The notes under the pieces were generated by a model. The model searched no databases and was not told the origin of the DNA. It saw only the letters and a list, made by a program, of their open reading frames with translations. A stretch of DNA of 23,414 nucleotides. Source: Candidatus Limnocylindrales bacterium. GTDB taxonomy: Bacteria > Moduliflexota > Moduliflexia > Moduliflexales > JAUQPW01. Location of the stretch: positions 62,001 through 85,414 of the forward strand of contig DATMBG010000029.1 of the NCBI GenBank assembly GCA_035559535.1, given 5' to 3'. Numbering within the stretch: position 1 is the first letter of the stretch; each line of letters starts with the position of its first letter. Below, one piece after another: positions 1,109 to 15,693 of this stretch. The translations under genes were made by a program, and so were the position numbers.

Positions 1109-1666
1109 ATGATAAAGCAAGCCTTGATCGCAATCCTTTTATTTATGGGCTTTATTCTTACTCCATCCCTTATTAATGAAGTTCCTGCCCAGCAATCTGA
1201 CAGTCGGGTGACCCAGGGTTTCCTCATCAATCCGGTTCCTCTGGTTAATATAAAAGGAAAAAATCTTGCTTTAGTGGGTTTAGGTAGTTATATTGTCAAT
1301 GCCCAGGCAGGTTGTAATGATTGTCACACCTGTCCCTCTTATACGCCGGGGCATAATCCCTTCAGCGGTGGAGATGGCCAATACAATGCTTTTAACTATC
1401 TCGCCGGAGGGGTACCCTTTGGGCCTTTCATCGTATCTGCGAATATTACTCCAGACTCAACCGGGAAACCGGCCGGTCTGACCTTCAATCAGTTCAAGCA
1501 AGCCTTACGTACAGGTCAGGATCCAATGGCTCCCGGTAACATACTCCAGGTGATGCCCTGGCCGGTATTCCGTCATATGACGGATCAGGATCTTCGGGCT
1601 ATTTATGAATACTTGAGCGCTATTCCCCATGCAGAACCGGGAACCTGCTCCGGGCCCGGAGAATAG
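1109..1666 (+). CDS. Exported monoheme c-type cytochrome
   Basis: N-terminal hydrophobic signal, one CxxCH motif (CNDCH), SANITPD...G and MPW...MTDQDLRAIYEYL C-terminal cytochrome c helix with a likely Met ligand. Confidence 0.85.
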   Translation: MIKQALIAILLFMGFILTPSLINEVPAQQSDSRVTQGFLINPVPLVNIKGKNLALVGLGSYIVNAQAGCNDCHTCPSYTPGHNPFSGGDGQYNAFNYLAGGVPFGPFIVSANITPDSTGKPAGLTFNQFKQALRTGQDPMAPGNILQVMPWPVFRHMTDQDLRAIYEYLSAIPHAEPGTCSGPGE

Positions 1667-2394: not shown

Positions 2395-2419
2395 CCTTTC
2401 CTAAAGAAAGGAGAGTATT

Positions 2420-2782
2420 ATGGCACGGATATTAATTATTGCAACCAGTGGTTCAGAAGATCCTACCCGTGCGGGTATGGCATTTTTGTTCGCCAAAGGT
2501 GCGGTAGAAGGTGGACACAGACCGGAAGTGGTACTGGCAGGTGATGGAAGCGTCCTGGCGAAGAAAGTGGTTGCCGAAAGTATTGTCCCTGTGGGGCTAC
2601 CACCCCTTAAGGATTTGATTCAATTTGCCCTGGATAATAAAATACCGGTTTATACGTGAGGAGCCTGTGGAAAGGCCCGTGGGGTTACCGATGAAGATTT
2701 AAAGTGGTTAAACGCAACATGGGTAACACCGAAAGATACCCTGCAACTTTCTGTAGATGTAGATCGGGTTATAACTTTATAA
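2420..2782 (+). CDS. DsrE-family sulfur-relay protein, probable selenoprotein (Sec at TGA 2657-2659, codon 80; 120 aa)
   Basis: DsrE-like N-terminus (ILIIATSG.EDPTRA...GDG). The frame continues past TGA as U-GACGKARGVTDEDLKWLNATWVTPKDTLQLSVDVDRVITL to TAA 2780-2782, completing a typical DsrE C-terminus. TGA sits at the first Cys of the CxxC position. AAGGAG SD. Confidence 0.88.
2657..2689 (+). promoter_or_regulatory. Candidate bacterial SECIS element of the dsrE-like gene
   Basis: GGCCC (2674-2678) / loop GUG / GGGUU (2682-2686), plus lower pairs GG 2669-2670 with CC 2688-2689. The loop begins 19 nt after UGA. Confidence 0.55.
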
Positions 2783-2905: not shown

Positions 2906-3793
2906 CTATAAGGCTCCCACTGCTTCTAAGGCCCGTCGAACTTCCTCCCGTGCCTCTCCCCTCAAAGGGACCTGCGGTGGGAGTGGATCCCCTACTGGAA
3001 ATCCTTGAAGTTCCAGTCCTGCCTTGATGCAGGCGGCCAGAGAATACCTGGTAAATACCTGATTGATCCGCCACAGCTCCCGTTGCAGGGTCATGGCTTC
3101 CTCCCACTTCTTTGCCCTGGCCAGCTCGTAAAGTCGAACACTCTGAGAAGGAATCAAGCAAGCAGGTCCCGCCATCCAACCGACTCCCCCGATCAACATC
3201 ACACAAAGGGGAATATGGGCCGAAGAACTAAATATCCGGATTCGATCCCCTACCAAGTTCAAAATGGAAAGGAGCCGACCGGTATCCCCGGAAGCATCTT
3301 TGAGATAACGGATATTGGGTACCTTCATCAATTGCTCAAGGACCCGTAATGTCAGGTCGCCTCTCTGAAAATTCGGATTTGTATAAAGAACCAGGGGACA
3401 GGATACAGCCTGTGCAATTTCGGTAAAATAGTTTATTACCCCTGATTCTGGAATCGGGAAATAAGTTTCTAAAATGGCCAGAATGCCATTAACTCCCAGG
3501 GCCTCCAATTCACGGGCCTGTCGGACGGCTTCTGCCGTTGCTGTGGACGCTACTCCGGCTATGACAGGTACCCGACCTGCGTTCGCCTCCAAAACAACCT
3601 CAACAACATGCTGTTTTTGGGACCAGTTCAGATAAGCGAATTCCCCTGTACTACCCAGTGGCGTAAGACCCTGTACACCGGAACGTACTAAATGATCGAC
3701 TAAACGGGCTAATACCTCACTTTTGATATTTCCTTGACTATCAACAGGAGTTACCAGATAAGGAAAAACTCCATGAAAGTTTACTTCAGCCAT
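2906..3793 (-). CDS. Dihydrodipicolinate synthase (DapA/NanA) family aldolase
   Basis: GSTGEF, RVPVIAGV, catalytic Tyr (LYTNP) and Schiff-base Lys (YLKDAS). Substrate cannot be assigned. Confidence 0.92.
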   Translation of the reverse strand: MAEVNFHGVFPYLVTPVDSQGNIKSEVLARLVDHLVRSGVQGLTPLGSTGEFAYLNWSQKQHVVEVVLEANAGRVPVIAGVASTATAEAVRQARELEALGVNGILAILETYFPIPESGVINYFTEIAQAVSCPLVLYTNPNFQRGDLTLRVLEQLMKVPNIRYLKDASGDTGRLLSILNLVGDRIRIFSSSAHIPLCVMLIGGVGWMAGPACLIPSQSVRLYELARAKKWEEAMTLQRELWRINQVFTRYSLAACIKAGLELQGFPVGDPLPPQVPLRGEAREEVRRALEAVGAL

Positions 3794-14643: not shown

Positions 14644-15693
14644 ATGAGCAAGAAAGACCGATGGGAATTGACAAAAACCGTTGAGTGCGGGGGTTGAGCT
14701 GCGAAATTAAGCCCAACGGTGTTGGGCCACGCACTGGCAGGACTAAGCAGACCGGCCGATGAAAATCTTCTGGTGGGTATTGAAACAGCCGATGATGCAG
14801 GGGTCTATAAATTGACCTCAGATCTGGCTTTGGTTCAGACGGTGGATTTTATTACGCCCATCGTAGACGACCCCTATCTTTTTGGCCAGATTGCCGCAGC
14901 CAATTCCATCAGCGATATCTATGCCATGGGTGGAAGGCCCCTGACGGTCATGAATATTTTATGCTTCCCGGTTTATAAACTGGATTCTAAAGCCTTAGAC
15001 CTGATTTTAGAAGGTGGTCAGGATAAAGCCATGGAGGCCGGTGCAGTGCTTGTGGGAGGTCATACGGTCGACGATGATCAACTGAAATATGGGATGTCGG
15101 TGACCGGGATTGTGCACCCTGAAAAGGTTCTACGCAACTCTACGGCAAAATTAGGAGATAAGCTTATTTTGACAAAGCCTCTAGGAACCGGGATTATTTC
15201 CACTGCAATTAAGAAACGGAAGGCTTCTTTACAGGCCGAAGAGGAAATCTGCCGCAGTATGACCCAACTTAATAAAATCGCTGCAGAAGAGATGCAAAAC
15301 TTCACCGTTCATGCCTGTACCGATATCACCGGTTTCGGTCTTATAGGCCACGGTTGGGAGATGGCTAAAGGGAGCGGCCTGGGCCTGAAAATTCGGGCTT
15401 CCCAGGTTCCTATCTTCGAAGAAGCCCTTCCCCTTGCTAAAAAAGGCATACTAACCCGTGGGGATAGAACCAATCGGGAATATGTTCAAGGTAACTATAC
15501 CATCGATGAATCCATCTCAAAGGAAGTGGTTCACGTTCTGTTTGATCCCCAGACCTCCGGAGGTCTTCTGATTTCCATCTCTCCAGACCAGGCCGATGCG
15601 CTTCTGAAAAAGCTCTGGGAGCGTGGAATTACCGCTGCCCGAATTATCGGAGAGGTTATCCATGAAGCCGGACGGATTGTAGTAGTCCCATAG
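14644..15693 (+). CDS. selD: Selenide, water dikinase (selenophosphate synthetase), selenocysteine-containing (Sec at TGA 14695-14697, codon 18; 349 aa)
   Basis: ATG 14644 with an AAAGGA SD gives MSKKDRWELTKTVECGG-U-AAKLSPTVLGHAL, in frame with the 14719 ORF. Downstream motifs: DDAGVY, QTVDFITPIVDDPY.FGQIAAANSISDIYAMGG, GGHT, LTKPLGTG, TDITGFGL.GH, DPQTSGGLL. Confidence 0.96.
14695..14733 (+). promoter_or_regulatory. Bacterial SECIS element of selD
   Basis: Perfect 7-bp stem GCCCAAC (14711-14717) / loop GGU / GUUGGGC (14721-14727), with the loop 20 nt after UGA. Lower stem UGCG 14700-14703 with CGCA 14730-14733. Confidence 0.75.

Follow-up and report, generated by a model that had tools for sequence, protein, structure and literature searches.

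DsrE-like selenoproteins with a UxxC motif have been known since 2005, when a 'DsrE-like protein, Pfam02635, UxxC' was presented as a new selenoprotein family from the Sargasso Sea, consisting of two sequences with a predicted SECIS element (PMC1088965). A DsrE-like selenoprotein was listed for Desulfovibrio vulgaris in 2006 (PMC1794560), the GOS data yielded groups named 'DsrE 1' (2 sequences) and 'DsrE 2' (19 sequences) in 2008 (PMC2398784), and two reviews (PMC9312934, PMC13188914), in the parts that deal with them, list DsrE-like selenoproteins as functionally uncharacterised. As described in the relevant passages of this literature, the published proteins match PF02635, carry a UxxC motif with selenocysteine (Sec) in first place and have Cys-containing homologues, all of which they share with the protein described here, and their function has been approached through bioinformatics only. 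The first-pass annotation of the DNA analysed in this work, a stretch of 23,414 nucleotides (hereafter the window), had noted that Sec-containing DsrE-like proteins were on record, and those same passages bear it out; the window gene adds one member to a group that is already known.

Among proteins of solved structure, the best match to the window protein is the DsrE/DsrF-like protein 3mc3 of Sulfolobus solfataricus (E 2.1e-12 over residues 2-118; TM 0.85), whose function is not established; it has Cys in the column of the putative Sec at residue 80 (U80), but differs in having Cys for Sec and in being without a second Cys (C-V-Q-S). E. coli YchN (1jx7), for which we know of no function, resembles the window protein as a stand-alone small DsrE fold with C-x-x-C in the same place, followed by R-G (C-K-T-C-T-D-G-R-G-I), although it carries Cys rather than Sec and is the weaker match (E 2.6e-5). 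TusD of E. coli (2d1p_A) and DsrE of Allochromatium vinosum (2hy5_A) have the same fold, and the conserved Cys of TusD, which we take to be the persulfide-carrying Cys78, aligns with U80; unlike the window protein, which has C83, TusD is without a CxxC-type second Cys. The window protein is further set apart from the TusBCD and DsrEFH relays by falling short of the NCBIfam TusD equivalog cut-offs and by having no partner subunits encoded next to it.

Reading frame, fold and homologues of the DsrE-like gene

The gene occupies positions 2420-2782 of the plus strand (120 residues plus TAA), with a Shine-Dalgarno-like GGAG, read from the sequence, at 2410-2413 (+), 6 nt ahead of the ATG. Under translation table 11 the open reading frame (2420-2659) gives 79 aa and ends at the TGA at 2657-2659, and the frame behind this codon stays open for 40 further codons (GACGKARGVTDEDL...DRVITL) up to the TAA at 2780-2782; both the stop at 79 aa and the 40-codon extension had been pointed out in the first-pass annotation and were confirmed from the sequence. 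The read-through product has 120 residues with the motif U80-G-A-C83 (UxxC), in which the UGA of codon 80 (2657-2659, +) is assigned to Sec from its alignment with Cys and from the conservation of the TGA, while the TGT of codon 83 (2666-2668, +) encodes a Cys whose TGY codon is invariant in all 61 distinct Sec-type sequences and which would likely be the resolving residue. We conclude that 2420-2782 is a genuine DsrE-like selenoprotein gene that gene callers cut short at 79 residues. To the fuller reading, namely that of a 120-residue DsrE-fold selenoprotein with a SECIS-directed Sec80 and a U80/C83 pair that would act in redox or sulfane-sulfur chemistry, we assign, from sequence comparison, a probability of about 0.88.

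The Pfam DsrE/DsrF-like domain PF02635 matches residues 3-119 of the read-through protein (E 3.1e-13; 50.4 bits versus a cut-off of 22.7 bits) and the match covers positions 2-115 of the 116 in the model; since it extends across the TGA, the domain requires the part encoded behind that codon. PF02635 is the sole Pfam match of the read-through protein up to E = 1, and no AhpC/TSA or Redoxin-type domain was found at this threshold. An AlphaFold2 model built from a 34-sequence alignment reached a pLDDT of 97.8, with none of the 120 residues below 90, and a pTM of 0.90. In this model the post-TGA part supplies strands 99-102 and 116-119 together with helices 91-95 and 104-113, U80 lies at the end of strand 77-80, and C83 falls within helix 81-86. 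The top Foldseek matches in the PDB were 2hy5_A (DsrE), 1jx7_A (YchN), 3mc3 and 2d1p_A (TusD), and a profile search of PDB sequences placed U80 in the column of the Cys of 3mc3 (Y-V-C-V-Q-S), of YchN (L-C-K-T-C) and of TusD (N-I-C-V-A-A). The 120-residue DsrE fold proposed from the letters of the sequence is thus upheld by the Pfam match, by the confidence of the model and by the DsrE, TusD and YchN fold matches. Among NCBIfam models, those for TusD (NF001237 and TIGR03012) scored below threshold, with 16.5 and 16.3 bits versus cut-offs of 92 and 89.25. The name 'predicted peroxiredoxin', which one source gives to homologues, was considered and rejected, as the fold search returned DsrE-type structures and not thioredoxin-fold peroxiredoxins.

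A collection of 5.8 billion proteins, searched by word index, gave 161 matches. Among the best 120 of these, nearly all are exactly 79 aa long and cover 66% of the query, and hence end at the same codon as the 79-aa ORF of the window, which is the truncation by standard pipelines that had been predicted; those that bear a name go by 'DsrE family protein' or 'predicted peroxiredoxin', and the MAGs that carry them are labelled Betaproteobacteria, Burkholderiales, Myxococcaceae, Deltaproteobacteria and Eisenbacteria. When 1.84 billion cluster representatives were searched exhaustively with HMMER, 449 proteins were obtained at E <= 0.001, which include many full-length forms of 118-121 aa as well as, among the best 150, at least 31 representatives of 78-80 aa. 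When 30 full-length representatives were aligned with four read-through proteins (alignment A1, 34 rows), the column of U80 held mostly Cys (C-x-x-C), the remainder being Ser, chiefly of the ...S-G-M-S-S-K... type, and neither Trp nor Gly stood opposite U80 in any of the 34 rows. The first-pass annotation had located the TGA at the first Cys of a CxxC motif; the full-length homologues agree, with Ser in some paralogues, and the conserved Cys of TusD is found there as well. NCBIfam has no model for this clade (the best is that for TusD, at 16.5 bits), and because nearly all of the best 120 homologues are in addition kept as 79-residue fragments, the clade is systematically truncated. This constitutes a systematic gap in annotation, as a consequence of which the selenoproteome counts of soil bacteria are underestimated. 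In some rows of A1, such as P0170, P0173, P0217 and P0225, Ser replaces both Cys (S-G-M-S-S-K); by analogy with DsrF/H and TusB/C in the relay complexes, these paralogues are probably non-catalytic.

Conservation of the TGA codon and the selenocysteine machinery

The phylum of the window is represented by nine genomes in our collection (G000-G008). The gene is present in both genomes of the window's own genus, that is, in G000 and, with one in-frame TGA, in G001, and none of the seven genomes of the sister family gave a match with the window's protein as query. A scan of genome contigs yielded three loci in total (L022, L023 and L024), all with TGA at codon 80 and with read-through proteins 93, 78 and 77% identical to the window protein over all 120 residues. 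In metagenomes, the aligned codon is TGA in 79 of 80 loci, which continue with x-x-C-x-x-A-R-G-V, keep the conserved C-terminus and have best-segment identities of 43-75%; the count arises partly by construction, the query patterns having been taken from Sec-type proteins, while the depth of divergence does not. The 80th locus (L050), which has a frameshift behind codon 16, was left unevaluated; its match measures 359 nt versus 360 expected, from an assembly error or a decayed copy. MAGs that bear the labels of several other phyla also contain copies 75-80% identical to the window gene, a patchy distribution that could reflect horizontal transfer.

The substitution pattern behind the TGA resembles that ahead of it. 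When 69 distinct full-length genes were compared with the window, their differences at codon positions 1, 2 and 3 amounted to 0.33/0.28/0.67 behind the TGA and to 0.33/0.22/0.71 ahead of it, and this similarity indicates that the tail is under the same purifying, coding-type selection as the rest of the gene. The similarity that was to be looked for behind the TGA is therefore present, and the TGA itself recurs in dozens of independent assemblies (G001 and the 79 of 80 metagenome loci), which answers the concern that it might be a sequencing error. With respect to sequencing data, no RNA run was listed for this stretch. The contig from run X1 shows no alternative letters at a depth of 28, but the assembly may have been made from X1, which hence is not counted as independent; the contig from run X2 spans only 2447-2647, stops short of the TGA and lends no independent support. 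A second contig in run X1 (record 4), from another organism and aligned to 2672-2709 of the window, carries a related gene reading ...ACC TGA GGG CTT TGC...; therefore, more than one member of the community has a Sec-type copy.

The TGA is also used as an ordinary terminator by these organisms. It ends 2 of the 17 long ORFs of the window and also terminates the DsrE-like gene itself in L023, in L024 and in many metagenome loci, which shows that the genetic code has not been reassigned. The genome of the window (95.8% complete) encodes selB (408.6 bits versus a cut-off of 242), selA (622.1 bits versus 268), selD (388.6 bits with TIGR00476 versus 125) and a tRNA-Sec (selC; 74.5 bits versus 47), and selB was above cut-off in all three of the other genomes that carry the gene. 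Thus selA, selB and selC, the presence of which had been proposed as a check, all occur, together with a selD that contains Sec: the selenophosphate synthetase gene lies within the same window, at 14644-15693 (+), some 12 kb from the DsrE-like gene, is recorded with '1 TGA', and has this in-frame TGA at 14695-14697 in the motif ...C-G-G-U-A-A-K-L..., so that selD is itself a selenoprotein gene.

A compact SECIS candidate within the Ala-Arg-Gly-Val codons

The part of PMC8659212 that describes the SECIS element of E. coli gives a 17-nt upper stem-loop (nucleotides 15-31) at a distance of 11 nt from the UGA; its apical loop contains G23 and U24, and its U17 is bulged. The SECIS candidate of the window (2669-2689, +), recognised by covariation and frozen codons, has its core hairpin at 2674-2686 (GGCCC-GUG-GGGUU) with G23, U24 and G25 of the loop at 2679-2681, in a numbering that counts from the U of UGA and in which the hairpin spans positions 18-30; the window copy has an extra lower stem of 2 bp that pairs 2669-2670 with 2688-2689. 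As in the fdhF SECIS of E. coli, to the extent that this source describes it, the hairpin lies inside the coding sequence downstream of the UGA and presents G23 and U24 in its loop at an equal distance from that codon. It differs in that the loop has only 3 nt (GUG), in that the lower stem varies between clades, and in that the bulged U17 is not conserved, position 17 being A in 30, U in 18, G in 11 and C in 2 of 61 sequences. The window hairpin is small, with 5 core pairs of which two are G-U, and has a free energy of -6.2 kcal/mol; a plain fold of 2650-2720 was no better than shuffles (z = -0.40), and a search of the whole window against Rfam at the gathering threshold gave no match.

Conservation was evaluated in 81 related 72-nt segments around the TGA, of which 61 are distinct, taken from the window, the three genome loci and 77 metagenome loci, leaving out L049 (indel), L050 (frameshift) and L061 (contig end). 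Across the 61 distinct segments, positions 19-29 almost always read G-C-C-C-G-U-G-G-G-G-U, the consensus hairpin being GGCCC-GUG-GGGUY, and these positions correspond to the codons for Ala86-Arg87-Gly88-Val89. In a set of 69 distinct genes, codon 86 always ends in C (69 of 69) and codon 88 is without exception GGG (69 of 69), while 64 of 68 genes use CGT as codon 87; the synonymous entropy of codons 86, 87 and 88 is accordingly 0, 0.32 and 0 bits, as compared with 1.02-2.01 bits for 21 further conserved codons of four- or six-fold degeneracy, a comparison that was made only against codons within the same genes. With synonymous sites frozen in this way, conservation of the amino acids fails to explain the pattern. 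A search of 400 genomes around G009 for Cys-type homologues with the ARGV motif found only more distant Cys forms of the CxPC type.

The ungapped alignment A3 supports a 12-pair helix with three or four invariant core pairs. Pair 27/39 is GC in 43 sequences, CG in 5, GU in 5, AU in 3 and unpaired in 5, while pairs 26/40 (UA 18, AU 16, GU 2) and 24/42 (GC 18, CG 16, and others) change on both sides. Double changes filled 50 cells versus 28.9 expected, and the covariation score of 0.122, versus a shuffled mean of 0.055, was reached by none of 500 shuffles and lay above every slid register. The lower stem, as predicted from this alignment, is clade-specific, because only some of the clades retain the outer pairs. 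Taken together, the candidate hairpin at 2674-2686 fits a bacterial SECIS. The first-pass annotation had claimed a SECIS-like hairpin behind the TGA, and this stood but for one detail: a conserved and covarying hairpin is present at 2674-2686, and is distinct from the hairpin of minimum free energy directly behind the TGA. The latter (structure B) was rejected for want of covariation, with a single both-sided change and a score of 0.066 versus 0.063 in shuffles. The compact element, with its 5-bp core and its G23-U24 loop in the A-R-G-V codons, provides a testable signature for recovering such genes, and is a convenient natural minimal SECIS for reporter work.

Proposed role, alternative readings and gene neighbourhood

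In the mechanism that we propose, the small mRNA hairpin at 2674-2686, situated in the invariant Ala-Arg-Gly-Val codons, would recruit SelB carrying Sec-tRNA(Sec), and UGA80 would in consequence be decoded as selenocysteine and not as a stop, on grounds that are comparative rather than experimental. U80 stands where TusD/DsrE have their conserved active-site Cys and where YchN-type proteins have the first Cys of their CxxC, and would form with C83 a selenenylsulfide/selenol-thiol couple, in which Sec would attack a disulfide, persulfide or polysulfide as the oxidised sulfur substrate and C83 would resolve the adduct. The protein would accordingly be a stand-alone redox or sulfane-sulfur-handling protein and not a subunit of a DsrEFH/TusBCD relay. 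We infer this selenenylsulfide/persulfide chemistry from the motif, its position and the protein family.

A plain reading of translation table 11, which yields the 79-aa ORF, and the public annotation of homologues at 79 aa would both favour a true stop, such that the gene would be a pseudogene or encode a 79-residue DsrE fragment, the frame behind the TGA being a remnant. We regard this as highly improbable and exclude it because the 40 codons behind the TGA remain conserved in copies with as little as 43% overall identity, show the coding pattern of 0.33/0.28/0.67, and complete both the Pfam domain and the fold, including strands 99-102 and 116-119; in a decaying remnant, moreover, a single open frame would not have survived in 79 of 80 independent contigs. 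That the TGA should be a sequencing or assembly error for TGC or TGT, and the product an ordinary CxxC protein of the DsrE family, gains some colour from the existence of Cys-type full-length homologues and from the possibility that the assembly was made from the only run covering the codon. Its chances are nevertheless vanishingly small and it too is excluded, because the same TGA recurs in many independent assemblies, namely in G001, in all three genome loci and, across many samples, in 79 of 80 metagenome contigs, and even the contig from X1 is without other letters at its depth of 28.

The chemical identity of residue 80 rests on the comparison of sequences, which leaves room for decoding as something other than Sec, either through a reassigned code (Trp or Gly) or through SECIS-independent, near-cognate insertion of Cys or Trp. 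Such decoding is very unlikely in view of the TGA terminal stops in L023, L024, many metagenome loci and 2 of the 17 long window ORFs, the complete Sec machinery, the conserved hairpin at SECIS spacing, and homologues that have Cys at residue 80 with Trp or Gly in 0 of 34. There is, finally, a slim chance that the protein is a Sec-containing subunit of a DsrEFH/TusBCD-type relay, passing a persulfide on U80 towards DsrC or TusE, as the alignment of U80 with the conserved Cys of TusD and a fold like those of 2hy5_A and 2d1p_A might suggest. The TusD equivalog scores, however, are far below their cut-offs, no DsrF/H or TusB/C-like gene is adjacent, the genome of the window contains a single match to the DsrE-like protein at E <= 1e-10, and the invariant C83 suggests an intramolecular couple, whereas TusD (N-I-C-V-A-A) has no second Cys.

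The window protein may belong to a separate branch of the DsrE-like selenoproteins, the published groups having been likened to it by domain and motif. Its clade (U-G-x-C-x-x-A-R-G-V) comes mainly from records labelled soil, groundwater and similar. A second Sec-type subfamily (L115, U-I-P-C) is 37% identical to the window protein over 94 residues and has Sec in the same column, and in the sample of 400 genomes around G009, 15 of 124 match rows had one in-frame TGA. We consider it rather doubtful, although worth stating, that the clade forms a distinct and very widespread DsrE branch, mostly of soil and groundwater, in which Sec is essentially fixed, the SECIS loop lies in the Ala-Arg-Gly-Val codons and the protein handles sulfane sulfur or selenium. 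If this were true, the protein might be, for example, a persulfide/polysulfide reductase or a carrier delivering selenide to SelD, a role unlike that of the generic thiol oxidoreductase assumed for 'DsrE-like' selenoproteins.

The DsrE-like gene is flanked upstream by a gene of the pyridoxamine-phosphate-oxidase (PNPOx) type (1756-2394, +) and downstream by a gene of the DHDPS family (2906-3793, -). No operon is evident around it in the window, the neighbours give no functional context, and no DsrF/DsrH or TusC/TusB-like partner gene was found among them. Neighbourhood clustering of 82 loci, with antisense ORFs cleaned out, likewise revealed no universal neighbour. One clade (L070-L097, L080, L084 and L104-L106) shows the recurring order MerR (-), DinB-like (+), Sec gene (+), LysR (-), MBL-fold protein and MFS transporter, with each of these neighbours present in 5-13 of the 82 loci (window included), many contigs being too short to judge, and with the MBL-fold protein of L106 fused to two rhodanese domains. 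This recurring neighbourhood gives a weak hint of thiol or sulfane-sulfur stress chemistry.

Two further observations concern neighbouring genes. The DsrE-like Sec gene of L057 is followed, after 46 nt, by an ArsC-family gene (PF03960; 4361-4741, +), as are those of L055 and L056. This ArsC-family gene contains an in-frame TGA in the motif K-K-G-U-G-T-C-E-N, making two adjacent selenoprotein genes, and is probably truncated or mis-started in annotation. Within the window itself, an ORF of 185 aa at 1109-1666 (+), with no Pfam match at E <= 0.001, has an N-terminal hydrophobic segment and a C-N-D-C-H motif that is a possible c-type haem site.
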